A stretch of 64,000 nucleotides of DNA from Alphaproteobacteria bacterium (GCA_040220875.1 JAVJVX010000003.1:136969-200968); one strand, 5' to 3'; counted from the stretch's first letter, positions 28,651-51,992 are shown. Notes: generated by a model not told the origin, from the letters alone. Made by a program: numbers and translations.

Positions 28651-29103
28651 ATGACACACGGCCCGGTTGCTTTCTTCAGTCGAACGTATGACGACGCGTT
28701 CGACCTGCTCCTGGACGCGCGGGACTATCTCTCGGATGGCCTCGCCCGTGATCGGGGCGGCCTGGGTCTGGCGGAACCGGGCGCGGCCGACGGCATCGGC
28801 CGGCTGGCGCTCAGCCGCGAGCTCCACCGCCTGACCAGCCGGATTACCAGCGTCATGGCCTGGTGCCTCGAGCAAAAGGCAGTCGCGCGGGGTGAAATTT
28901 CCGCCGCCCATTACGCCCGGCAGAAAAACCGGTTGGCCGGCCATCGGGTCAATCTCGTCCGGCCCCGCGATCCGGGTGGCGCCATCCCGCCCCGTCTCGG
29001 CCACCTGCTCGAGCGGTCCTACCGGCTTTATCTGAGGGCGCACCGGCTGGACCAGATGATCTATACCCGCGCGCCGAACGCACAGGCGGCGCGGCGGGGC
29101 TGA
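28651..29103 (+). CDS. DUF1465-family protein (RcdA-like)
   Basis: The N-terminus FFSRTYDDAFDLLLDARDYL matches the DUF1465 family. I recall that the Caulobacter proteolysis adaptor RcdA belongs to this family. Confidence 0.65.
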   Translation: MTHGPVAFFSRTYDDAFDLLLDARDYLSDGLARDRGGLGLAEPGAADGIGRLALSRELHRLTSRITSVMAWCLEQKAVARGEISAAHYARQKNRLAGHRVNLVRPRDPGGAIPPRLGHLLERSYRLYLRAHRLDQMIYTRAPNAQAARRG

Positions 29104-29568: not shown

Positions 29569-30579
29569 CTAGCGGTCGGTCAGGCGGAATTCGATGCGCC
29601 GGTTCTGCCGGAGCGCCTCCGGGCTCGTGCCCTCGGCGATGGGCTGATGCTCGCCGAAGCCCGTGGCCGCCAGCCGATTCGGCGGGATGCCGCTGTCAAT
29701 CAGGTGCCGGACGACGGAAATCGCCCGCTCGGTCGAGAGCTCCCAGTTTGATTCGAACCGCTCGTTGTGGATCGGGCGCTGGTCCGTGTGCCCGTCGACG
29801 CGCAGAAGCCAGGACACATTATCGGGGATACGTGCGGATATTTCCTGCAGCGTTTCGGCCAGTTGACGGATCTGCGCCTGGCCGGCCTCGCCCAGCCGCG
29901 CTGAGCCGGTGGCGAAGAGGACCGAGGATTCAAAGACAAAGCGGTCGCCCACGATCCGGACATCGGCGCGCTCGCCCAGGACTTCGCGCAGCCGGCCGAA
30001 AAATTCGGACCGGTAGCGTTCGAGTTCCTGCGACCGCTTGGCCAGCGCGACATTGAGCCGCTTGCCAAGATCCTCGATTTCCAGAGTCTGCGCCGCAACC
30101 GTGGATTCGGACGCGGCCAGCACCTCCTCGAGGGCCGAGAGCTGGCGGCGCAGCGCCTCGATCTGCTGGCCGAGCGTGGCGATGCGTTCCGCCTGGTCTA
30201 TCCGCGCCTCCTCGGAGGCGGCGAGCGCGGTGCTGGCGACCCGCGCGCGCTGGCCCGCCGCTTCGGCGGTGCTGGCCAGGGTGTCCCGTTCGGAAAGGGT
30301 TGCTTCAAGGGAGCTCTTCAACCGGTCACGCTCGGTGGTCAGCGTGGTGACCGCCTTGCGTTCGAGTGCGAGCTGATCGGCCAGCTGCTCGATCTGGGCG
30401 CTCAGCAGGTCGAGTGCGTCTTCCTTGGAGGTGACCTGCTGGGCGAGATAGACCTGGGCCACGGTGAAGATGAGCAGCATGAACACGAGCACGATGAGCA
30501 GCGCCGACAGGGCATCGACAAAGCCGGGCCAGGTGCTCTCGCTGTGGCGGTATCGCCGGGCAACGCTCGGGTAATACAT
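29569..30579 (-). CDS. MotB-like protein: TM with conserved Asp, long coiled-coil linker and OmpA-like peptidoglycan-binding domain
   Basis: The N-terminal TM segment [22 protein letters not shown] has an Asp at the position of MotB D32/ExbD D25. It is followed by about 200 aa of heptad-like Q/E/A/L/R-rich sequence. The C-terminus has OmpA/MotB motifs ([22 protein letters not shown]). Confidence 0.8.
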
Positions 30580-30597
30580 GCTGGCTGCCTTTTTTTC

Positions 30598-31794
30598 TCA
30601 GCCGCTATGGGGCGGCGTCGCGCCGGAGCCGGCCGCATCGTCCCGGATGGTCGCGCCAAGCGTCCGGGCCAGCAGGCGGATTTCGCTCCTGAGATCGGCC
30701 AGCATCCGGTCGCGCCCGATGACCTGATCGTCCACCAGCCGGGTCAGCTGCACGTCGAGATGGCGCAGATGATCCTGGCTGGCTTCATCCAGACCCAGCT
30801 TGCCGGCCTCGGCCAGCTCCGTGAGACGTACGAAGAGGGGCCGGATATCGGCGTGGGATTCGGCCAGTTTCAGCATCAGCTTCTGCTCGGCGCGCATCTG
30901 GTCACTCAGGGTTTCGAGGCGCTCGGCCAGGGTGACGAGGGATCTGTGGGATTCGGTCGCCGCCGCTTCGGACCGCGAGAGGGTGCGCTGAAGGGAATCG
31001 AGATTGTCCGCCGTTTGCTGCATGAGCGCCTCGAGATAGGCGGGCGGCGATATCTCGCCGGAGAAGCCCATCGGGCGCTCGCCCGCCGATACGCCCGCGG
31101 GCAGGGTGTGGCGGGTGATCGAGGACAGCCATTCTTCGAGATTATTGAAAAACCGGTTTTGCGCCTGGCCTGCCGTCAGATCGAGAAAGCCCAGCACGAG
31201 GGAGCCGGCGAGGCCGAAGAGGGAGGAGCTGAAGGCCGTGCCCATGCCGTCGAGCGGCGCGGTCAGGCCCTCGCGCAGATTGGCGAGGAACTGTTCGAGC
31301 GATCGGGGCTGCAGCTCGAGGCCCGTCAGAACGCCCCCGACTGACTGGATCGTCTGCAACAGACCCCAGAAAGTCCCGAGGAGCCCCAGGAAGATCAGGA
31401 GCCCGATGAGGTAGCGGGAGTTTTCCCGCCCTTCGTCGAGGCGCGAGCGGACGCTGACCAGAAGCGTCTGGCTGGTCGGCGCGGCCAACGTCTCGCTGCC
31501 CGCCGAACTGCCCAGTATCGGGGCGAGCTGCGCCAGGAGGGCGGGCGGCGGCCCGGCCTTTCGGGCGTCGCCGGTACGGCGAAAGGTCTCGATCCAGTCG
31601 GCGGCCGGGGCAAGAGACCAGGCCTGGCGCAGGATGTAAAGGATGCCCAGAGCAAGCGCCGATAAGATGATCCCGTTGATGACAACATTCGCCATAAACG
31701 CCGATCTGAGAAACGGGTGAAGGGCCACGATCGCACCGGCCACGAGGGCCAGAAAGGCGATCATGCGCAGGATGTAGGCGGTGGGGCGTGTCAT
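30598..31794 (-). CDS. MotA/TolQ/ExbB-family proton-channel protein with C-terminal coiled-coil tail
   Basis: It has four predicted TM helices. TM3-TM4 (YLIGLLIFLGLLGTFWGLLQTI and GMGTAFSSSLFGLAGSLVLGFLDL) resemble the MotA/TolQ/ExbB channel core. About 170 aa C-terminal to them are helical. Its stop is 18 nt before the MotB-like start. Confidence 0.8.
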   Translation of the reverse strand: MTRPTAYILRMIAFLALVAGAIVALHPFLRSAFMANVVINGIILSALALGILYILRQAWSLAPAADWIETFRRTGDARKAGPPPALLAQLAPILGSSAGSETLAAPTSQTLLVSVRSRLDEGRENSRYLIGLLIFLGLLGTFWGLLQTIQSVGGVLTGLELQPRSLEQFLANLREGLTAPLDGMGTAFSSSLFGLAGSLVLGFLDLTAGQAQNRFFNNLEEWLSSITRHTLPAGVSAGERPMGFSGEISPPAYLEALMQQTADNLDSLQRTLSRSEAAATESHRSLVTLAERLETLSDQMRAEQKLMLKLAESHADIRPLFVRLTELAEAGKLGLDEASQDHLRHLDVQLTRLVDDQVIGRDRMLADLRSEIRLLARTLGATIRDDAAGSGATPPHSG

Positions 31795-31886
31795 GGGTCG
31801 AATTGCTTCCGGCTGGTGGACGAGAAACGGTTCCGTGCCGCGCCGGGCGGTCGGGCGGCGGTTTCTGGCGCCATGACGGACGCCCG

Positions 31887-33131
31887 TCAGGGGGCGGTAA
31901 CGGTGACGTCGACCCTGTCGGCCGGGCCCTGTTCGAATCGGTCTCCCAGCGCGCGCACATCCATCCGCGTGCTGCGCACCCCGTTATCCATCAGATAGGT
32001 TCTCACGGCCAGCGCGCGGGAGAGGGAGAGCCTGCGGGCGTCGCTCGGGTCCTCGTCGATCGCCGCCGCATAGGCGGAGAGTTTCACGCGCCGCTTCTGG
32101 TCCTCGTTGAGCGTGGCCACGATCTCGTCGAGCGCCTCGGCCGCGTCGGCCGGCAGGGCCGCGCTGCCGCCCTTGAAAGTGATCCGCACGCCGCCCTCGA
32201 CCGAGGTGGTGCGCGGCGGCAAGGCGGCCGTTTGCGTGCCCGCGGCCGGTGCAGTCTCTTCCGCCGGCACCGCCAGGGCCGCGCTCTCCACCGGTACCGT
32301 CGGTACGGCCGGCGGTGGCGGGGGCTCGTTCGCCGGTGTCTTGGCCGGCGGCAGCACGTCGGGCACGGTATCATCGCTGGCCGGTATCGCGGCCGTCTCG
32401 GCGGCCACAGGTGGAGCGCTGGCGGGCGCGTCTTCTTCCGCTGTGTCGTCGCCGCGCGCCGCGTCGCTCTCCGCGCTGATCGGCGGTGTGGGTACGAATT
32501 CGGGGTCGGTCGGCGCCTCGTCTGTCATTTCCGGCGCGGGCGCGGGCGCGGGTTCCGCCTCGGGCTCGGGGATCGCGGCCAGTTCCGGTCGCGCGGGCGG
32601 GGCCGTGGGCGGAACGGGCGCAGGCTTTGCGACCTCGGGCTGGGGCGTCAGCCTGGCTGGTGCGGCGGACCCGGACGGTTGTGGCCGCGGACTCGGCTCC
32701 GGCGGCGCTACTTGCGGCCGCGGCGGAACGGTGAGGCCTGGCGAGTCGAACACCGGCGGCTGGCGCAGCCCGGCCGTCGCCGGGCCGTCCGATCCGGGCG
32801 GTCGGAGCACGATCCGTTCGCCGGTCGCCCCGTGTCCGTCCGGAGGGGTCAAAGTGATGGGCTGGTTGCCCTTGGGGCCGACGCCCGGAAAGAGAAGCCG
32901 GGGCGGCCTTTTGGGGTCGGCCTGCTGGTCGATCGCGTCGAGGTTGAGTTCGACCGCGGGTCGCCCGCTGCCACCAATCACAATCGTGGGCGGATCGGCC
33001 AACCCATAGCCGTCCTGCGCCGGCGCGGGCCTGCTTGCCAGGACGAGACTCCCGGCAAGGGCGGAGAGGATGATGAGGCGGGGCAGGGCGGGCGCGCCGT
33101 GACGCGCGGAGCCTGGCGGGCGGGTCGGCAT
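31887..33131 (-). CDS. secreted proline/alanine-rich protein with C-terminal OmpA-like domain
   Basis: From ATG 33131 there is a signal peptide (MPTRPPGSARHGAPALPRLIILSALAGSLVLASRPAPAQD). It is followed by more than 250 aa of P/A/E-rich low-complexity sequence ([22 protein letters not shown]). The C-terminus has an OmpA-like motif (RLSLSRALAVRTYLMDNGV). The track ORF starts 13 codons earlier. Confidence 0.65.
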   Translation of the reverse strand: MPTRPPGSARHGAPALPRLIILSALAGSLVLASRPAPAQDGYGLADPPTIVIGGSGRPAVELNLDAIDQQADPKRPPRLLFPGVGPKGNQPITLTPPDGHGATGERIVLRPPGSDGPATAGLRQPPVFDSPGLTVPPRPQVAPPEPSPRPQPSGSAAPARLTPQPEVAKPAPVPPTAPPARPELAAIPEPEAEPAPAPAPEMTDEAPTDPEFVPTPPISAESDAARGDDTAEEDAPASAPPVAAETAAIPASDDTVPDVLPPAKTPANEPPPPPAVPTVPVESAALAVPAEETAPAAGTQTAALPPRTTSVEGGVRITFKGGSAALPADAAEALDEIVATLNEDQKRRVKLSAYAAAIDEDPSDARRLSLSRALAVRTYLMDNGVRSTRMDVRALGDRFEQGPADRVDVTVTAP

Positions 33132-33330
33132 CGTCCGATCAATGCCTGGCTCAGTGAAAGATGTCGACATGCCGCTCCCCGGGACCCCGGCCGAAAGCCG
33201 CCAGCCCCTCCCATATAGCGCCCCACCTTAGCTCAGACCGGCCCGGCCAAACAACTGGTTTGGCAGGGGCCGAAGCCGAAAAACCGGGGCTTTTCAAAGA
33301 TGTGACGCCGGGTGGCCGATTGGAGCGCGG

Positions 33331-40176: not shown

Positions 40177-40405
40177 CGGGATTTCCAGATTGCGGCCGTT
40201 TAGGCCGGATTTTCGGAGTTGTTCGGACGATCCGTGCGGATCTTGATATGGATTCTGGGCGAGGTTGGGGGCGGGCGGGCGACGGCAGGGTCGCGCGCCT
40301 GTATTGGGGCGGAATGTGCCGAGCCGGCCCCCGGTCGTCAACCCGATTCCCGCGTGCCGCCGCCATCCGTCACCGCTTTTGGCGCGCATCCATGCACGGG
40401 CGCGG

Positions 40406-40435
40406 TTGACCGTGATTTCGCCGCGATCGTATGGT
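40406..40435 (+). promoter_or_regulatory. candidate sigma70 promoter for DUF4164-zapA (TTGACC-18-TATGGT)
   Basis: TTGACC (40406..40411) and TATGGT (40430..40435) are present, about 65 nt upstream of ATG 40501. Confidence 0.35.
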
Positions 40436-40500
40436 TCAATTCAGTCAGGGCGCGCCTTCGGCCATGCGCCCCCTAATGGCCTTCTCGAAACAGGATCTCG

Positions 40501-40710
40501 ATGGAACGTCTCTTATCGGCGCAGGCGCGGCTGTCAGCCGCGGTGGACCAACTCGAAGCGGCCGCGCGCAACATCGCGAATAAGGGCGGATCGGAGGACG
40601 ATGTCGCGCGGCTCCGGGCCGAGGCGGATCTGGTCCGGGACCGGAACCGGCAGCTCGGCAAGCGCCTGGATGCCGCCATCGCCGAGATCAAATCGCTTTT
40701 GGAGGCATAG
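40501..40710 (+). CDS. DUF4164 small coiled-coil protein (ZapA-associated, ZauP-like)
   Basis: It is a 69-aa helical protein (LEAAARNIANKG...RLRAEADLVRDRNRQLGKRLDAAIAEIKSLLEA). Its stop is 5 nt before the zapA ATG, and GGAGG lies inside its 3' end. Confidence 0.6.
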   Translation: MERLLSAQARLSAAVDQLEAAARNIANKGGSEDDVARLRAEADLVRDRNRQLGKRLDAAIAEIKSLLEA

Positions 40711-40714
40711 GGCG

Positions 40715-41059
40715 ATGGCGCAAGTCACGGTTCAGGTCAACGGGCGGGAATACAAACTCGCGTGCGATGACGGGCAGGAGGGCCATTTGTCGACCCTGGC
40801 TTCCTATGTCGACGAGCGGGTGCGCGAGATCGCCCAAGGCGCCGGCCATCATGTGAGTGACGCCCAGCTTCTCCTGATGGGCGCGCTTCTCGTCGCCGAC
40901 GAACTGGCCGAGACCTATGACGAGCTGGAAACCGTCAGGACCGCTCTCGAGGCGGGGGCATCGGGCGCGGCGGACGAGGCGGCGGCGGCGCTCGACGGGC
41001 TGACGGCGCGCCTGGAGCGGCTGTCAGCCACACTTGCGGACGGGCAGTCGCGCGCCTAG
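40715..41059 (+). CDS. zapA: cell division protein ZapA
   Basis: The translation MAQVTVQVNGREYKLACDDGQEGHLSTLASYVDERVREI is a ZapA N-terminal match, with a coiled-coil C-terminus. It is 114 aa. Confidence 0.8.
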   Translation: MAQVTVQVNGREYKLACDDGQEGHLSTLASYVDERVREIAQGAGHHVSDAQLLLMGALLVADELAETYDELETVRTALEAGASGAADEAAAALDGLTARLERLSATLADGQSRA

Positions 41060-42924: not shown

Positions 42925-43674
42925 ATGGCAGGTCATTCCAAATTCAAGAACATCCAGCACCGCAAGTCGGCGCAGGACAAAAAGCGCGCCAAGATCTTCA
43001 GTCGCCTCATCCGGGAGGTCATCGTGGCCGCCCGTACCGGCCTGCCCGAGCCGGACAAGAATCCACGCCTGCGCGCCGCCGTGGCCGCGGCCCGCACCGC
43101 CAACATGCCAAACGACAACATCGAGCGTGCGATCGCCAAGGTGGCGGGCGGGGACGACGACACGAATTACGAGGAAATCCGCTACGAGGGCTATGGACCG
43201 GGCGGGGTGGCGGTGATCGTCGAGGCGCTGACCGACAACCGTAACCGCACCGCCGGCGAGGTCCGGGCCATTTTCTCCAAGCATGGCGGCAATCTCGGCG
43301 AAACCGGCAGCGTGAGCTTCATGTTCGAGCGCCGGGGGGTGATCCGGTATCCCGCGGAGGCGGGCTCGGCTGAAGATATCCTCGAGGCGGTGATCGAGGC
43401 GGGGGCCGAGGATGTCGCGCACGATCAGGACGGCCACGACGTCATCACCGCGCCCGAAGACCTGCATGCCGCGCGCGACACGCTGGCGGCCCGCTTCGGC
43501 GAGCCGGAAAGCGCCGAACTGGTCTGGCGGCCGGCCAACACGGTCGAGGTGGATGAGGCGGCGGCGGCGACACTTCTCAAGCTGCTGGACGCGCTTGACG
43601 ACAACGACGATGTGCAATCGGTCGCCGCCAATTTCGAGGTGTCCGATGACATCCTCGAACGACTGACGGCATGA
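42925..43674 (+). CDS. yebC: YebC/PmpR-family transcriptional regulator
   Basis: The translation [32 protein letters not shown] is the invariant YebC N-terminus. It is 249 aa. Confidence 0.9.
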
Positions 43675-43676
43675 CC

Positions 43677-43724
43677 GGGGCCCTTCGGTCCTGGCGTGGG
43701 GCCCTTCGGCCCTGGCGTGGGGCC
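43677..43724. repeat. two tandem copies of a 22-nt GC-rich unit (ggggcccttcgg(t/c)cctggcgtg)
   Basis: It lies between the yebC stop and ruvC. Each unit holds a GGGCC-CTTC-GGCCC tetraloop hairpin. There is no T-run. Confidence 0.5.
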
Positions 43725-43760
43725 TGACGGGGCGGCGATGGTGACGGGGAGCGGCGCGCA

Positions 43761-44282
43761 ATGAAACTGATCGGGCTTGATCCCGGCTTGCGGCGCACTG
43801 GCTGGGGCGTGATCGAGGTCACGGGAAACGCGCTCGTCCATGTCGCCAATGGCACGGTCGAAAGCGAGGCGAGCGCGCCACTCGCCCGGCGTCTCGAGGA
43901 GATTTTTACCGGCCTGATGGCAGTGCTGGCGGCGCACCGGCCCAAAAGTGCCGCGGTGGAGGAGACCTTCGTCAACCGGAACCCCAGCTCGACACTCAAG
44001 CTTGGCATGGCGCGCGGGGTCGTGCTGCTGGCGCCGGCCAGGGCTGGCTTGGCGGTGGCGGAGTATTCCGCCAATCAGATCAAGAAATCGGTCGTAGGCA
44101 GCGGGCACGCGACCAAGGATCAGATTGCCATGATGGTGACCACCCTGTTGCCCCGGGCCGAGATCAGCGGTCACGACGCGGCCGACGCGCTGGCCGTGGC
44201 CATCTGCCATGCGCATATGTCGATGACGGCGACGCGCATTGCGGCCGGGCGGACGGATGCGGTTGCGGGACGGTTCGGATGA
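43761..44282 (+). CDS. ruvC: crossover junction endodeoxyribonuclease RuvC
   Basis: It has [19 protein letters not shown] (catalytic Asp in DPG) and an RNase H-like fold. It is 173 aa. Confidence 0.9.
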
Positions 44283-44896
44283 TCGCCAGGCTGAAAGGGC
44301 TTCTGGATTATACGGACGATGGGCGCGTGGTGCTCGATGTGGGCGGTGTCGGCTATCTGGTCTTTTGCTCGAACCGCACCATTGCTGACCTGGCCGCTCC
44401 CGGCAGTCCCGTGACGCTCGAAATCGAGACCCAGGTGCGCGAGGACCAGATTGCCCTTTATGGATTTCGTGACGTGTCCGAGCGCGACTGGTTCCGTCTC
44501 CTGATCACGGTGCAGGGCGTGGGTGCCCGGGTCGCGCTGGCGATTCTCTCGGTCCTCCCGCCGAAGGATCTTGCGCGGGCGATCGCGGCCGGCGACAAGG
44601 CACTGATAACCCGTGCGGACGGCGTCGGCCCCAAGCTGGCGACGCGTATCCTGTCCGAGTTGCGCGACAAGGCCCCGGCGCCGGAGACCGGCCATGGGTT
44701 TTCCGCGGCCGGCGGGGCGGCGGCGGACGATCCGGCGGCACGGACGGTTGAAGGCGACGCGGTATCGGCGCTCGTCAATCTCGGCTATGGACGCAGCGAG
44801 GCCTATGGCGCAGTCGCCCGCGCGGCCAGCCGGCTGGGCGATGGCGCGGGGGTCGAGCTGCTGATCCGGGACGGCCTGAAGGAGCTGAGCACGTGA
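44279..44896 (+). CDS. ruvA: Holliday junction branch migration protein RuvA
   Basis: It has [11 protein letters not shown]...GVGYLVF, HhH motifs and a Gly-rich linker. It overlaps ruvC by 4 nt. Confidence 0.9.
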
Positions 44897-45972
44897 GCAC
44901 GGATCGACTGGTTGCGGGGAAGGCAATGGCCGCCGACGAGGTCCCGGGCGACCCTCTCGACACCTCTCTGCGCCCGACCAGCCTTTCGGCCTTCGTCGGC
45001 CAGGCGAAGCTACGCGAGAATTTGCGGGTCTTCATCGAGGCGGCGAAGAAACGGGGCGACGCGCTGGACCATGTGCTGTTTCACGGACCGCCCGGGCTCG
45101 GCAAGACGACACTCGCCCAGATCGTCGCGCGCGAGCTGGGGGCGGGGTTCCGCGCGACGTCCGGTCCCGTGATCGCCAAGGCGGGCGACCTGGCGGCGCT
45201 GGTGACCAATCTGGAACCGGGCGATGTGCTGTTCATCGACGAAATTCACCGCCTCAATCCGGCGGTCGAGGAAATCCTTTACCCGGCGATGGAGGATTTT
45301 CAGCTCGATCTGATGATCGGGGAGGGGCCAGGGGCGCGCTCCGTCAAGATCGATCTGCCTAAATTCACCCTGATTGGAGCGACGACGCGCTCGGGCCTGA
45401 TCACCACCCCCCTGCGCGAGCGCTTCGGTATTCCCTTGCGGCTCGCATTCTACCAGACGGACGAACTCGAGCGTATCGTCAGCCGCGGGGCGGGGCTGCT
45501 CGATCTTGCCCTGACTCCCGACGGCGCGCGCGAGATTGCCCGGCGCGCCCGCGGGACACCACGCGTCGCCGGCCGGCTGTTGCGTCGGGTCCGCGATTTC
45601 GCCGCCGTTTCGGGCACGAAGGAGGTGGATGCGGCGGCGGCCGATGCGGCGCTTAACCGGCTGGAAGTGGATGGCCGCGGCCTGGATTCGATGGACCGGC
45701 GGTACCTTTCCTGCATCGCTTCCAACTACGGCGGCGGTCCGGTGGGCGTGGAAACGCTTTCGGCTGCGCTGTCCGAGCAGCGCGATGTGCTCGAGGACGT
45801 CGTGGAACCCTTCCTGATCCAGCAGGGCTTTGTGCAACGCACGTCGCGTGGGCGGTTGCTGACCGCGAGCGCGTTCGAGCATCTGGGCCTGCGCATCCCG
45901 GCCGGGCTCGCCCGGCAACTTGATCTCCTGGGCGCGGAAGACGCGACCGGCGAAGGTGAGGCGGATGACTGA
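44893..45972 (+). CDS. ruvB: Holliday junction branch migration DNA helicase RuvB
   Basis: It has [14 protein letters not shown] (Walker A), DEIHRL (Walker B) and an AAA+ fold. It overlaps ruvA by 4 nt. Confidence 0.95.
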
Positions 45973-46450
45973 ACGATCCGGTCGGAGAACGAGCGAGGCA
46001 ACACGTCGCCATACTCATGCCCATATTATGCCGCTTCGTATCTACTTTGAGGATACGGACGCGGGGGGCATCGTTTATCACGCCAATTATTTCCGGCATG
46101 CCGAGCGTGCGCGCGCCGAGATGATGCGTACGGTCGGACTGGAGAGCCGTCATCTCTGGGAAAAGGAGGATCGTATCTTCGCCATCCGCCATGCGGAGAT
46201 TGACTATCTCGCGCCTGCTTATCTGGACGATGCACTCGAGGTCGAGAGTGAAATCCTGGAAATGCGGGGCAGTTCGATGACCGCCCGCCAATGCGTGAAA
46301 CGCGAAGGCCGGATGCTGGTTGAAATGAATATCGTTCTAGTTTGTCTCACGGGCGAGGGAAAGCCGGTCCGGATACCGGATCACGTTCGTGACAGATTGG
46401 GAGCCTTTGTCGCAACGGTCGGGGCCGGCGGGACAGAAGAAAAGGGTTAG
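45965..46450 (+). CDS. ybgC: YbgC/FadM-family acyl-CoA thioesterase (tol-pal associated)
   Basis: It has [26 protein letters not shown], a hot-dog fold. The start is uncertain: ATG 45965 overlaps the ruvB stop, and ATG 46028 is the alternative. Confidence 0.75.
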
Positions 46451-46461
46451 GGGCAACTCAA

Positions 46462-47184
46462 ATGGAAAATGCAGTCGTTGATACCGTGCAGCTCGCCGGG
46501 TCGATGGATAATGCCAGCCTGTCGATCTGGGGCTTGTTTCTCCAGGCCGATTTCATCGTCAAATCCGTCATGATCATTCTCGTCCTGGCCTCGTTCTGGA
46601 GCTGGTCGATCATTTTCGAGAAATCACTCCGCCTGCGCCGTCTGCGCCGGGACACGGACGCCTTCGAGGCCGAATTCTGGTCCGGCACGGCGCTCGAGAG
46701 CCTGTACAAGGATGCCAAAAGCGAGCCTGAGGAACCGATGTCCGCCGTCTTCGTCGCGGCGATGGGCGAGTATGAACGCGCCGCCCGCAAGGGAATCGCG
46801 CCCGCCGGGCGCGCCTGGCTCCAGCAACGTATCGAGCGCGCGATGGACATCACCATCGGTCGCGAAATGGAGCGCCTCGAACGCTACATGCCGTTTCTGG
46901 CCTCGGTCGGATCGACCGCACCCTTTGTCGGCCTGTTCGGCCCGGTCTGGGGCATCATGAACAGTTTTCAGGCGATCGGCATGACCAAGAGCACCAGCCT
47001 GGCAGTCGTCGCGCCCGGCATCGCCGAGGCACTTTTCGCCACAGCGCTTGGCCTTATCGCCGCGATCCCGGCCGTCCTGGCCTACAACAAGCTGTCGGGC
47101 GACCTCGGCCGGTATGCCGGCCGACTCGAAGCCTTCGCCGGCGAGTTCATCGCCATTCTCTCCCGCGAGTTCGAGGAGAAATAG
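46462..47184 (+). CDS. tolQ: Tol-Pal system protein TolQ
   Basis: It has 3 TM helices and a MotA/ExbB/TolQ core (GLFGPVWGIMNSF...AEALFATALGLIAAIPAVLAYN). Confidence 0.9.
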   Translation: MENAVVDTVQLAGSMDNASLSIWGLFLQADFIVKSVMIILVLASFWSWSIIFEKSLRLRRLRRDTDAFEAEFWSGTALESLYKDAKSEPEEPMSAVFVAAMGEYERAARKGIAPAGRAWLQQRIERAMDITIGREMERLERYMPFLASVGSTAPFVGLFGPVWGIMNSFQAIGMTKSTSLAVVAPGIAEALFATALGLIAAIPAVLAYNKLSGDLGRYAGRLEAFAGEFIAILSREFEEK

Positions 47185-47186
47185 AG

Positions 47187-47630
47187 ATGGGCGTGTCAGT
47201 TGGCCAGAACACGGGCCGCCGGGGCCGCGCCCGCAGCCGGCCCGGCATGATGAGTGAGATCAACGTCACCCCGCTGGTTGACGTGATGCTCGTGCTTCTG
47301 ATCGTTTTCATGGTTACAGCGCCGCTCCTGACCGTGGGCGTGCCGGTGGATCTGCCCGAGGCGGATGCGCCCTCGCTCACCCAGCCGGAAGAGCCGCTGG
47401 TGGTTTCGGTCGACGGGGAGGGGCGGATCTTCATCCAGGAAACCGAAACGACGATTGCCGAACTTGCGCCACGATTGGCTGCGATAACCGGGAACAATCC
47501 GGAAACCCGGATATATCTGAGGGGAGATCGTACGCTCAATTACGGGCGGGTCATGGAAGTGATGGGGACGGTCAACGCGGCCGGCTTCAACCGGGTCGCC
47601 CTCGTGGCGGAAGTTCCGCGTCCGAAGTAG
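47187..47630 (+). CDS. tolR: Tol-Pal system protein TolR
   Basis: The sequence INVTPLVDVMLVLLIVFMV has the TM Asp. It is an ExbD/TolR-family protein of 147 aa. Confidence 0.9.
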   Translation: MGVSVGQNTGRRGRARSRPGMMSEINVTPLVDVMLVLLIVFMVTAPLLTVGVPVDLPEADAPSLTQPEEPLVVSVDGEGRIFIQETETTIAELAPRLAAITGNNPETRIYLRGDRTLNYGRVMEVMGTVNAAGFNRVALVAEVPRPK

Positions 47631-47633
47631 GGC

Positions 47634-48647
47634 GTGGCTGACTTGACCAATCGGGCAGGTGAGGCGGGTGATGCGGGTGATGCGCCCGGCGCGGCGGCTC
47701 GCCCGGACGACCATCCCCGACAGGGAAACGGCGCGAGGACCATGCGGCGCGGCGCACTCTTTTCAGCCTTGGTTCATGTCGCGGTACTCCTGGTCGCGGT
47801 CTTCGGGATTCCAAGCGTGCTCGAGGACCGGATCGGCCCGACGCCGCCCATCCCTGTCGAAATGGTGACAATCGACGACGAGACCCGCGCGCCGGTCCCG
47901 ATGGCCGAGCCCGAGCCCGAGCCCCAACCCGAGCCCCAACCCGAGCCCGAGCCGGCACCCGCGCCGGCACCGGCGCCGGAACCGGCGCCGCCGGCCGCAT
48001 CACCCGCCGCGCCGCCCAGCCCGGCCCCGTCACCCGCCCCGCGCGAGGTGGTTCCGGCCGCCCCGCCGCCCGTGCCGCCGCCCGTGCCGAAGCCCGAGGC
48101 CAGGCCGAAGCCGCCGCCCGAGCGGCCGTCTCCGGCCCCCCAAACGGCGGCCGCGCCGCGAAAAAAACCCGCGCCGGAGCGCCAGAAGCCGGCCGCCGAC
48201 GAGTTCATGTCCGTCCTCAGGACGGTGGAGGAGTTGAAATCCCAGGCGCCACACCAGGAAAAACAGCAGGAATCGGCCGATCGCGCCCCAGAACCGCCAC
48301 AGTCCCAGCCCAGTGTTTCGCCCGCCAGGCGACTGACCATGAGCGAACTCGACGCTGTCCGGGCCCAGATCGCCAGGTGCTGGAACATTCCCGCCGGCGC
48401 GCGGGACGCAGAGAACCTCGTAGTGGAGATCTGGGTGGCGATGCTGCCGGATGGCCGGGTGAGCGACGCAAGGATCGTGGACCGGGACCGGGCCGGCCGG
48501 GACCCGTTCTTCCGGGCCGCGGCCGAAAGCGCCCTGCGCGCGGTTCTCAACCCCCAATGTTCGCCCTTGCGGTTGCCGCCGGAAAAATATGAAGTGTGGC
48601 GCACAATGACACTGGCCTTTAATCCCAAGGAAATGTTCGGAAGCTAA
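47634..48647 (+). CDS. tolA: cell envelope integrity protein TolA
   Basis: It has an N-terminal TM ([19 protein letters not shown]) and a long [14 protein letters not shown]-rich domain II. A C-terminal TolA domain follows. The start is uncertain (GTG 47634 versus ATG 47742). Confidence 0.75.
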
Positions 48648-48658
48648 GATTCCATCTC

Positions 48659-49993
48659 GTGATTAGGCACATTCCCCTCCCTTTCGGTCTATCCGTCCTG
48701 CTGCTGGTCATCGTGCTCGGAAACTTTTCCGCCCGGGCCGAGCTCCGCATCGACATCACGCGGGGCAATATTGACCCGCTCCCCATCGCCGTGACGGCGT
48801 TTTCCGGCGGCACGGAAGAGGAGACATCTCTCGCCAGCGATGTGGCGGATGTGGTCTCGGCCGACCTGGAACGCTCCGGCCTGTTTCGCCCGATCGAGCG
48901 CAGCGCCTTCATCGAGCAACTGTCCTCGCTTGCGGTGCGTCCCCGGTTCGGCGACTGGCGGATCATCAATGCCCAGGCCCTGGTGCACGGGCGAGCGCAG
49001 CTCATGCCGGACGGGCGGCTTCGCGTGGAGTTCCGGCTTTGGGATGTTTTCGCCGAGCAGCAAATCAGCGGCTGGGCGTTCCAGACGACACAGGATAACT
49101 GGCGTCAGATTTCGCACAAGATCGCGGACAAGATTTACGAGCGTATCACGGGGGAGAGCGGCTATTTCGACAGCCGGATCGTCTATGTCTCGGAGAGCGG
49201 CTCGGCCATGAATCGCATCAAGCGCCTTGCGATCATGGATCAGGATGGCGCCAATCACCGCTTTCTGACCGACGGTGGCACGCTGGTGCTAACGCCCCGC
49301 TTTTCTCCGACCTCCCAGGAAATCACCTACCTGTCCTACGTCAACGATCAGCCGCGGGTTTACATCTATAATATTGAAAGTGGACGGCAGGAAATCCTGG
49401 GTGATTTTCCGGGCATGACCTTCGCGCCCCGTTTCACGCCCGACGGCAACAAGGTCATCATGAGCTTGGCGACGGGGGGCAATTCGGAAATTTACAGCAT
49501 GGACCTCAGAACCCGTCGGGTCCGTCGCCTGACCAAGAATCCGGCCATCGATACGTCGCCCTCCGCCTCGCCCGACGGGGAATCCATCGCCTTCAATTCG
49601 GACCGGGGCGGCAGCCAGCAGATCTATGTCATGGATTCGGATGGGGGCAATGTGCATCGAATCAGCTTTGGGGAGGGGCGCTATGCCACTCCGGTATGGT
49701 CGCCACGGGGCGATCTGGTCGCCTTTACGAAAATGTTAAAGGGTGAATTTTATATTGGCGTGATGAAATTCGACGGGTCGGGGGAGCGCCTTCTGGCCAA
49801 GGGATTTCTGGTGGAAGGGCCGACCTGGGCGCCAAACGGGCGGGTTCTCGCCTTTTTCCGCCAGGAACCCCAGTCCGGGCCGGATAGCGGCGGGGCCCGG
49901 CTTTTTTCCATCGATCTGACGGGGCATAACGAACGCGAAATACTTACGCCGTTAAATGCTTCTGACCCGGCCTGGTCGCCGCTTTTGCCCTAG
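48659..49993 (+). CDS. tolB: Tol-Pal system beta-propeller protein TolB
   Basis: It has a signal peptide, an N-terminal TolB domain and repeated WD-like propeller blades (SPDG...[12 protein letters not shown]). It uses a GTG start. Confidence 0.9.
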
Positions 49994-50178
49994 GCGGAAG
50001 CGGCCATCGGGTGGGGAAAGAGCGCGTTAAGAGATAGAAAACAAAGAAATTGCCGCTTTTGCTGGGGTGTTGTATGAAAAACACAGCGAAAATGGAATGG
50101 TTAACGGGGCTGGTTTGCGGTAGCCGCCTGCCGTTTCTCGCGCCCGGAGACGGGCGCCATTGTCAGGGGAATTGAACT

Positions 50179-50697
50179 ATGAAACTCAAATTGGCGGCGC
50201 TTTTTTCGGCGCTCCTGTTCGTATCCGGCTGTCAGACGAGTCCCACGCAAACGGGAGGCGCTGGCGGAACGGGTTTCGGCACGTCCGGCGGCGGTGCCGG
50301 CGGCTCGGTCGTTTCGACGCCGCAGCCCGGCAGCCAGGCCGCGCTTGAGCAGGCGGCGGGTGACCGGGTCTTCTTCGACTTCGACCGCTACAATATCGAC
50401 GGCGAGGCGGAGGATACGCTCAAGGCACAAGCAGCCTGGCTCGAAAGCAACCCGTCGGTCACCGTGACCGTCGAGGGCCATGCGGACGAGCGGGGCACGC
50501 GGGAATACAACCTTGCCCTCGGCGAGAGGCGGGCCAACGCGGTCAAGAATTACCTCGTGGCGCTCGGCATCGACGATGGGCGTATCACCACGATCAGCTA
50601 CGGCAAGGAGCGCCCGGCGGTCGAGGGATCGAACGAAGCGGCCTGGGCGAAAAACCGTCGCGCCGTGACGGTCGTCACGTCCTCGCCGCGGAGCTGA
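50179..50697 (+). CDS. pal: peptidoglycan-associated lipoprotein Pal
   Basis: It has the lipobox LLFVSGC and an OmpA-like domain ([27 protein letters not shown]). Confidence 0.9.
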
Positions 50698-50936
50698 CGA
50701 CGGCTTCTGGTCGAGCCGCGATCCCGGCCCGGTCCCGGGCCGGATCGCTCCCATCCGTTACTGGAATTGTTGAACCCCGGCGAGCAGGTTGCCGGGGCTC
50801 ACATCTTTTCGACATATTCGGGTCGATAATTCGGGGTCCGGGCCGGTGATCCCAATGTCCGCCGGTTGCGGAGCGAATGCGGTTGGCGGCCGGGAGCGGA
50901 ACAATTGAGATCGGCATGATGCGAGAACCCGGCGTG

Positions 50937-51992
50937 ATGCAAGAACATGGGGGACGCCGTCGGCGTCGCGGTCCGGCGCGGCGGGCGGTGATGCCTGTGG
51001 CGATCCTCGGGCTGGCCCTGGCGGTCTCGGGCGGAGTTGGCCCGGTGTGCGCCCAGTCGGGCGAACTCGCGCCGGTGGTTACCCGGCTCGAGCGGCTCGA
51101 GGCCGACCTGAACGCGCTCCAGAAACAGGTCTACCGTGGCGAGAAACCGTCCGCCGTATCGCCTGCGAGCGATGGCGCGGGCACTGGCGCGGGCACTGGC
51201 GTGGGCACTGGCGCAGGCACTGGGCTTCAGGCGGGCCCCGTCGCGGCGCGGCTTCAGGTGAAGCTGAGCGATCTCGAGACTCAGATCCAGGAACTGACCG
51301 GTCGTGTCGAGGAAATCGCGCACGGGCTGGAACGCACCGGCCATCGTATCGATACGTTGCAGAGCGACCTCGAGATGCGCCTTTCGGCCCTCGAACGCCA
51401 GGGTGGCCGCGGGGCCGCGGACTTCGCCGACGGAAGCGCCGGCAGCTCCGGCGTTGACCGGCCAGGGTCGGCCGAACGCCCGGCCGGACGCTCGGGGCAG
51501 GTCATGCCCCTTGGTGTCACGCCCAACCCGTCCGTGCCACCGGCAGCGACCGGTGCCGGCGAGACGGCCGATATGGCGGCCTTGCCGGGCGCCGTCCTGC
51601 CGCCCGGGTCGGCGGAAGAGCAGTACAACCACGCCTTTTCTCTCGTCATCCAGGCCGATTACGAGGCGGCCGAAAAGGCGCTGGCGGCGTTTCTCGCCGC
51701 CCATGGCACGCATGACCTTGCGAGCAATGCCGCTTATTGGCGGGCAGAGACTTTTTACGTCCGCAAGAATTTCGCCGAGGCCGCCGTCCGGTTCGCGGAA
51801 AGCTACAAGCAATATCCCGACGGTACGAAGGCGCCTGACAGCCTGCTGAAACTCGGTATGTCGCTCGCGTCGCTCGAAAAAACGGAGGAGGCCTGCAAGT
51901 CCTTCGCCGAACTCGCGCGGCGCTATCCCGAGGCGCCTGCGCGCATTCAGCAACATGCCAGCCGCGAACGCGCGCGACTTGGCTGCCCCTGA
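50937..51992 (+). CDS. cpoB: tol-pal system protein YbgF/CpoB
   Basis: It has a signal peptide and an N-terminal coiled coil (LERLEADLNALQKQV; LSDLETQIQELTGRVEEI). C-terminal TPR repeats follow (YNHAFSLVIQADYEAAEKALAAFL...YWRAETFY). The start is ambiguous between ATG 50916, 50937 and 50991. Confidence 0.75.
   Translation: MQEHGGRRRRRGPARRAVMPVAILGLALAVSGGVGPVCAQSGELAPVVTRLERLEADLNALQKQVYRGEKPSAVSPASDGAGTGAGTGVGTGAGTGLQAGPVAARLQVKLSDLETQIQELTGRVEEIAHGLERTGHRIDTLQSDLEMRLSALERQGGRGAADFADGSAGSSGVDRPGSAERPAGRSGQVMPLGVTPNPSVPPAATGAGETADMAALPGAVLPPGSAEEQYNHAFSLVIQADYEAAEKALAAFLAAHGTHDLASNAAYWRAETFYVRKNFAEAAVRFAESYKQYPDGTKAPDSLLKLGMSLASLEKTEEACKSFAELARRYPEAPARIQQHASRERARLGCP

Follow-up and report, generated by a model that had tools for sequence, protein, structure and literature searches.

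A 64,000-nucleotide (nt) stretch of Alphaproteobacteria bacterium DNA (GCA_040220875.1 JAVJVX010000003.1:136969-200968; hereafter the window) carries on its minus strand three co-directional genes that had been predicted to form a stator-like envelope module. The open reading frames (ORFs), here called P1, P2 and P3, are all present, and ORF calling reproduced the predicted gaps of 92 nt between P1 and P2 and 18 nt between P2 and P3. P1 (31887-33170, 427 amino acids (aa)) is a secreted protein, rich in Pro and Ala, that ends in an OmpA-like domain, P2 (30598-31794, 398 aa) is an A-subunit-like membrane protein with the MotA/ExbB/TolQ/ZorA fold, and P3 (29569-30579, 336 aa) is a B-subunit-like protein. 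Because P2 and P3 have thousands of homologue clusters (at least 8000 each) and the synteny is conserved, we regard the three as genuine genes rather than chance ORFs. A 476-aa ORF on the opposite strand (31788-33218, plus strand), longer than P1 and covering all of it, was rejected as a high-GC shadow ORF, since homology, Pfam and external gene calls back the minus-strand gene only. The P2/P3 pair is a member of the 5:2 motor superfamily (MotAB/ExbBD/TolQR/ZorAB), and on balance we consider it probable that the pair is a core-genome, envelope-linked, ion-driven rotary motor of the inner membrane.

The structures of P2 and P3 were predicted as single chains. When the P2 model (pLDDT 87) was searched with Foldseek, all top matches were A subunits of 5:2 motors (ExbB, TolQ, ZorA and MotA; probability ~1), showing that P2 has the helical membrane fold of the ExbB/MotA type. 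The membrane core of P2 (aa 1-228; 31111-31794, minus strand, as for all features of P1 to P3), delimited by hydropathy, charge, the model helices and the invariant motifs LLIFLGLLGTFWGL and GMGTAFSSSLFGL, contains four membrane helices and a 70-aa cytoplasmic loop. Three helices are hydrophobic (aa 7-25, 37-55 and 128-146), and the fourth, at ~186-208, is Ser/Gly-rich and homologous to transmembrane helix 3 (TM3) of ExbB. Hydropathy and positive charges place the N- and C-termini, the loop (57-127) and the tail in the cytoplasm. In an alignment of 49 diverse homologues with identity down to 32%, the invariant positions include G137, L138, T141, F142, G144, L145, P180, M184, F188, S191, G194 and L195. 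Thr141 (codon 31372-31374), in the motif LLGT-FWG, and Ser191 (codon 31222-31224), in the motif AFSSS-LFGL, are the proposed ion-filter residues and would correspond to Thr147 and Ser184 of ZorA, an equivalence drawn from motif position and not from a model of the complex. In ZorA, these two residues form the ion filter that contacts Asp26 of ZorB, and the double mutant abolishes defence (PMC11946911). Of the channel-lining residues, which the original prediction had singled out for checking, P2 keeps the polar Thr/Ser pair that is conserved on the two inner A helices of 5:2 motors. Behind a disordered linker (aa 229-250), P2 continues into a cytoplasmic tail with model helices at aa 251-329 and 337-390 (30625-31044). 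Helix 251-329 has a heptad periodicity of 3.5, the observed value being reached in 0.2% of shuffles, and the tail motifs TDQMRAEQ and LLARTI are conserved.

Hidden Markov model (HMM) searches placed P2 nearer to ZorA than to TolQ, in agreement with the predicted likeness. Eleven ZorA models of PADLOC matched P2 (best, 4.4e-14) and none matched the TolQ of the window, used as a control. The ZorA1 and ZorA3 matches (4e-14) span aa 123-205 of P2 only, and one model reaches 299. The NCBIfam ZorA models stayed below their cut-offs on P2 (ZorA_2, 17 bits against 100; ZorA_4, 13.5 against 500); no other NCBIfam model exceeded its cut-off, and no NCBIfam MotA model matched at E up to 0.1. Nor does P2 fall into a Pfam family, with no match at E up to 0.1, PF01618 (MotA_ExbB) included, whereas the window TolQ scored 120 bits against PF01618. 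Among the proposed domain searches, OmpA was found on P1 and P3, but PF01618 was not matched by P2. The P2 clusters were counted at 90% identity; at 50% identity there were 456 representatives with E <1e-30, and homologues occur in at least 595 species genomes.

P3 has a single transmembrane helix with Asp22 (codon 30514-30516) in the motif WPGFVD, and W17-P-G-F-V-D22 is invariant in 36 homologues. A lone transmembrane helix that carries a conserved Asp, in a protein whose gene adjoins that of the A subunit, is the arrangement of a B subunit. AlphaFold2 (AF2) modelled a continuous single helix from aa 20 to 201, and on the AF2 helix and its periodicity we delimit a periplasmic coiled coil at aa 45-201 (29977-30447). 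At 157 residues, this coil is shorter than the predicted ~200; its best periodicity is 3.5, and 3.2% of shuffles attain the observed value. The C-terminal part is a MotB-type OmpA-like domain (29572-29967; Pfam OmpA, 4e-18), which Foldseek matched best to the MotS, MotB and PomB periplasmic domains (E 2e-11, TM-score 0.75-0.80). Its motifs DGHTD, SNWELSxxRA and NRRIE are invariant in 36 homologues and agree with the canonical GHTD/NxxLSxxRA/NRRxE pattern. P3 passes the NCBIfam model NF006543 (PRK09039.1-2, 'peptidoglycan-binding protein') at 406.7 bits, where the cut-off is 305, making it a member of that family; the name says nothing about a function, and a literature search found no experimental paper on it. 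On all MotB, MotD and MotS models P3 was below the cut-off (44-105 bits against 250-301). The PADLOC model ZorB3 matched P3 at 1e-28, whereas the Pal of the window reached 2e-8 only. The syntenic P3 homologues are 326-644 residues long (median 432; n=79, three called ORFs of <200 residues set aside), and the differences in length come from an insert of 0 to ~300 extra residues in the middle of the coil, both flanks of which are conserved. Collectively, the folds, the conserved Asp, Thr and Ser, and the adjacency of the genes agree with the predicted stator-like pair, and the profile matches suggest that its closest described relative is ZorAB.

The genomic context was examined in the best 80 genome loci with a P2 homologue, which come from Azospirillum, Thalassospira, Kiloniella, Defluviicoccus, Niveispirillum, Acetobacteraceae and many metagenome-assembled genomes (MAGs). 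P3 lies directly 3' of P2 in 79 of them, mostly 3-50 nt apart, and the eightieth contig stops after P2. Upstream of P2 is usually (tkt-gap-fba-thiE)-efp-suhB, and the conserved order in Rhodospirillales is (thiE)-efp-suhB-[P1]-P2-P3-rpmE-DUF1465. No phage matches to the pair were found, and a tblastn search of a plasmid collection returned no true plasmid copies; its match was Sinorhizobium meliloti CP090106.1, a chromosome of 3.7 Mb that was deposited under the name 'plasmid pSymB' (L089 4430-9069). The order there is thiE-rgsF-suhB-P2-P3-ABC gene (other strand)-rpmE-DUF1465-DUF1192. The P2 orthologue, annotated as 'MotA/TolQ/ExbB proton channel family protein', has 368 aa (40% identity, E 6e-60), and the P3 orthologue, annotated as 'peptidoglycan-binding protein', has 342 aa (46% full-length identity, E 5e-100). 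Since the same order is found in S. meliloti, the pair and its neighbourhood predate the Rhodospirillales/Rhizobiales split. The listed cluster members and a profile search with the most distant homologues yielded metagenomic or 'Rhodospirillales' proteins only. In MAGs labelled Acidiferrobacterales (L086-L088), P2-P3 lies directly upstream of yebC-ruvCAB-ybgC-tolQRAB.

From gene order, the S. meliloti orthologues are probably SMc03993 (P2) and SMc03992 (P3), the upstream genes being SMc03995, encoding the Sel1 protein RgsF, and SMc03994 (suhB). A binding screen recovered a ChvI-bound DNA fragment inside SMc03993 (PMC3687685). The complete core-essential table of PMC5929573 includes suhB and rgsF and lacks SMc03993 and SMc03992. 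The predicted housekeeping character therefore holds for the neighbourhood, conserved from Rhodospirillales to Rhizobiales, but an essential role is not indicated. RgsF itself, two genes upstream of the S. meliloti pair (thiE2-rgsF-suhB-P2-P3), is an essential polar-growth factor, a Sel1/TPR periplasmic protein. The polar-growth proteins RgsB, RgsC and RgsD of S. meliloti were considered as P2/P3 and rejected as different proteins, RgsC being an M15 peptidase and none of them having MotA or OmpA domains (PMC7327166), and SMc03993 and SMc03992 are not among the proteins in the Rgs pull-down tables.

P1 is less constant than the pair. Homologues of P1 with clear, cleavable-looking signal peptides are encoded upstream of P2 in 48 of the 80 loci; the gene is absent in S. 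meliloti, and there is no room for it where suhB abuts P2. What had been proposed as a three-gene module is thus a two-gene core, and P1 is a lineage-specific accessory outside it. The alternative start of P1 at 33131 (414 aa), which the original prediction had used, was also chosen by an independent gene caller on identical metagenomic contigs. The protein has a single N-terminal hydrophobic segment (aa 28-46), a 260-aa linker (aa 61-320) with 25% Pro and 17% Ala, and the predicted OmpA-like domain (aa 331-410, 31941-32180; Pfam OmpA, 5e-13). The fold is as expected, but the domain is not canonical: it has AYA for GHTD and ARRLSLSRAL for NxxLSxxRA, both conserved over 42 homologues, and DRVD at the NRRxE position, with just the Arg of the RA motif retained. 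As these canonical residues are replaced, peptidoglycan binding by P1 is uncertain; judged by its motifs, the domain belongs to a conserved sub-type, and its ligand may be other than the usual diaminopimelate (DAP) stem peptide. No PADLOC model matched P1. RmpM of Neisseria is a periplasmic linker with an OmpA-like domain. PapS of Rhodospirillum rubrum is another (PMC11369160). P1 resembles both at the level of the OmpA fold and differs in its long Pro-rich linker and in lacking the canonical DAP-binding Asp motif.

In the window, rpmE (encoding L31; 29195-29419, minus strand) is co-directional with P3 and starts 149 nt 3' of it. The sole strong terminator-like hairpin on the minus strand (29160-29136) is 3' of rpmE, and rpmE is possibly the last gene of the transcription unit. 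Neither a sigma-70-like promoter nor a CtrA box was found near the P1-P3 genes. On the suhB side, the module is flanked by genes for a SuhB-type inositol monophosphatase, elongation factor P, ThiE and a class I aldolase, and on the rpmE side by those for L31, a divergently transcribed DUF1465 protein, Hsp20 and TrcR. The DUF1465 gene (28651-29103, plus strand) and the TrcR gene (PF06242; 25380-26219) flank the module, and a DUF1192 gene is close by on matching contigs. TrcR and DUF1465 are families linked to the alphaproteobacterial cell cycle, DUF1465 being the RcdA family in Caulobacter. As predicted, the module is distinct from the tolQR pair of the window, which belongs to a separate tolQ-tolR-(tolA position)-tolB-pal cluster (46462-50697, plus strand) followed by a cpoB-like gene that extends to 51992. 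The tolA position holds a 337-aa ORF without a Pfam match. The whole string yebC-ruvC-ruvA-ruvB-ybgC-tolQ-tolR-(tolA position)-tolB-pal-cpoB occupies 42925-51992 (plus strand), 10-13 kb from the module. A further ORF (40265-41059, plus strand) has a ZapA domain confined to aa 154-254 of 264, reflecting either a long N-terminal extension on ZapA or a wrong TTG start.

What the analysis shows is the fold of the proteins, the conservation of key residues, the pairing of the two genes, their synteny and a specific affinity to ZorAB in the HMM searches; the working model that follows is inferred. Five P2 subunits would ring the transmembrane helices of a P3 dimer, and the motor would probably be driven by protons, which would pass through the Thr141/Ser191 filter of P2 onto Asp22 of P3. 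The P3 dimer would be immobilised by its MotB-type domain, bound to peptidoglycan at the tip of the long periplasmic coiled coil. With P3 held still by peptidoglycan, it would therefore be the P2 ring that turns, and the output element would be the short cytoplasmic helical tail of P2. The pair would serve a vertically inherited core-genome function of alphaproteobacteria and be part of neither a mobile defence island nor a flagellum. Its role would most likely be tied to the state of the envelope, either in sensing it or in organising how the inner membrane connects to the wall. We favour an envelope role because of three hints, each of them weak: the wall anchor, the ChvI-bound fragment and the occasional linkage to tol-pal. 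P1 would then be an optional periplasmic linker to the wall or the outer membrane in some lineages.

Several observations weigh against this model. The 5:2 assembly and rotation are argued from homology, and P2 shows very little sequence similarity to motors with solved structures: its profile matched ZorA in the PDB at E 0.012, or 4.4 with the core alone, the other PDB chains being mostly coiled-coil noise, and hhalign of P2 with the window TolQ gave a probability of 45% over 34 columns. The pair also fits a simple ZorAB/MotAB picture imperfectly. The P2 tail is short and flexibly tethered, its linker being indel-rich with pLDDT <50, where ZorA has a continuous helix; torque transmission to the tail is therefore doubtful. 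The periplasmic loop between the P2 filter residues is longer, with 50 residues from Thr to Ser against 37 in ZorA. The P3 coil, at least 23 nm if straight, is longer than any gap separating the inner membrane from the wall, and is unconstrained in length among homologues; its length and variability make it hard to see P3 as a simple inner-membrane-to-wall anchor. The coil may lie straight, tilted or folded back as a hairpin. No conserved third or cytoplasmic partner gene was found near the pair, including at loci with other neighbourhoods, which hold unrelated metabolic genes. A distant P2 homologue (33% identity; L081 1394-2521) lies without a neighbouring P3 on a short contig of low GC content, next to genes for a HAD hydrolase and a polytopic membrane protein of 441 aa and to an ORF of 182 aa. 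Finally, as the S. meliloti orthologues are not core-essential, any housekeeping role would be dispensable in the laboratory.

A bolder version of the motor model is that P2/P3 represents an ancient housekeeping branch of ZorAB, a proton motor with an extensible coil that signals or organises from the envelope to the cytoplasm, and that Zorya recruited such a motor later. The motor, rotary and held to the wall by this periplasmic coil, would then convert the envelope's mechanical or structural state into movement of the cytoplasmic tail, possibly with ties to the ExoS/ChvI regulon and to Tol-Pal. We put this forward tentatively, as a minority possibility.

A different reading turns the direction of the output around, making P2/P3 an outward force transducer of the Tol/Ton kind, in which the motor moves or pulls the P3 coil, as with GldM or TolA, to act on the outer membrane or the wall, P1 being the partner on the outside. 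The P3 coil is long enough to span the periplasm, the secreted, Pro-rich, OmpA-like P1 is encoded directly upstream in many of the loci, the pair adjoins a tol-pal cluster in one lineage, and most known 5:2 motors act on the outer membrane (PMC12204202). We nevertheless consider this unlikely. The static peptidoglycan anchor at the end of P3 is fully canonical and makes P3 the fixed part, as MotB and ZorB are; P1 is dispensable in many lineages, S. meliloti included; the length of the P3 coil is unconstrained; and the strongly conserved cytoplasmic tail of P2 would be left without a role. P2/P3 is also not TolQR or ExbBD. In contrast to TolQR-TolA-Pal and ExbBD-TonB, it matches neither PF01618 nor PF02472, P3 has an OmpA domain instead of the ExbD/TolR fold, and no anchored transducer like TolA or TonB accompanies it, since the P1 homologues have signal peptides rather than an anchored helix. 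A complete canonical tol-pal cluster moreover coexists with it in the window. GldLM/PorLM and SiiAB are likewise non-flagellar 5:2 motors, with an elaborated periplasmic GldM and a peptidoglycan-binding SiiA. GldM lacks a peptidoglycan anchor, unlike P3, in a comparison made by description and not by sequence, and P2/P3 has no genes for gliding or for type IX or type I secretion nearby.

The affinity to ZorAB (EcZorAB, PDB 8qyd; Shewanella, 8vvn) also raises the reading that P2/P3 is a Zorya anti-phage system, domesticated or partial, with its effector genes at another site in the genome. The specific ZorA and ZorB matches, the cytoplasmic coiled-coil tail on P2 and the lack of an evident MotB-like plug segment in P3, as in ZorB, would fit it. 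However, no gene like ZorC, ZorD, ZorE, ZorF or ZorG is adjacent in any context examined, and, as predicted, neither are flagellar or TonB-like genes, the conserved neighbours being housekeeping genes. The NCBIfam ZorA scores are far short of their cut-offs; the pair keeps a fixed syntenic position across orders, unlike defence islands, and is inherited vertically in the core genome, without phage or true plasmid copies. The proteins differ as well. P2 has four predicted membrane helices and ZorA three, and the P2 tail has ~140 residues after a flexible linker, whereas the tail of EcZorA, in which truncations abolish defence, has 507 (Gly223-Thr729) and is continuous with TM3. P3 carries a periplasmic coiled coil (up to ~450 aa in the family) that ZorB does not have. 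With no effectors, a short tail and scores below the cut-offs, P2/P3 is not a Zorya system, and a domesticated derivative with distant effectors seems quite improbable.

It is also conceivable that P2/P3 is a passive tether or scaffold that joins the inner membrane to the wall, with a channel that no longer conducts ions. The long coil with its peptidoglycan anchor resembles a spacer, and no partner or output is evident. Yet at overall identities of 32-57% there is no variation in D22, T141, S191 or the Gly-rich helices around them, and we give this reading little credence because such invariance of the ion pathway would be unexpected without an ion-coupled function. The weakest reading, a flagellar stator paralogue (MotAB), as in the automatic NCBI and JGI names 'flagellar motor protein MotA' and 'chemotaxis protein MotB', draws on the four-helix A subunit, the B-subunit Asp near the cytoplasmic end of its transmembrane helix and the MotB-type domain of P3, which make P2/P3 similar to MotAB, PomAB and MotPS, but it can practically be discarded, as P2 has no FliG-interaction loop and no MotA match in Pfam or NCBIfam, P3 falls short of every stator model, the tail on P2 and the coil on P3 are extra to flagellar stators, no flagellar or chemotaxis gene is among the conserved neighbours (efp, suhB, thiE, fba, rpmE, hsp20), and the family is present in Defluviicoccus and Crenalkalicoccus, which are non-motile genera. 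Neither by the models nor by its context is P2/P3 a flagellar stator, and the automatic names are misleading for the pair.

The 5:2 motors listed in the literature are MotAB, PomAB, LafTU, AglRQS, ZorAB, SiiAB, TolQR and ExbBD, which work in motility, import, stabilisation of the envelope, secretion and defence against phages (PMC12204202), and a heterogeneous 'generic ion transporter' group includes members of unknown function (PMC12505986). In line with the original prediction, which did not recognise the module as a described system, a full-text literature search found no published description of the P2/P3 pair, nor did these two papers hold one. The pair would add a widespread 5:2 motor, conserved across alphaproteobacterial orders and without an assigned output, with an unusual architecture in which the B subunit bears a periplasmic coiled coil and the A subunit a tail that is short and tethered. 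Since orthologues occur in Azospirillum and in the tractable S. meliloti, where they are apparently non-essential, the motor could be tested directly. Being the closest relative of ZorAB outside defence in this analysis, P2/P3 would bear on the origin of Zorya and on how a ZorA-type tail may act without nucleases.

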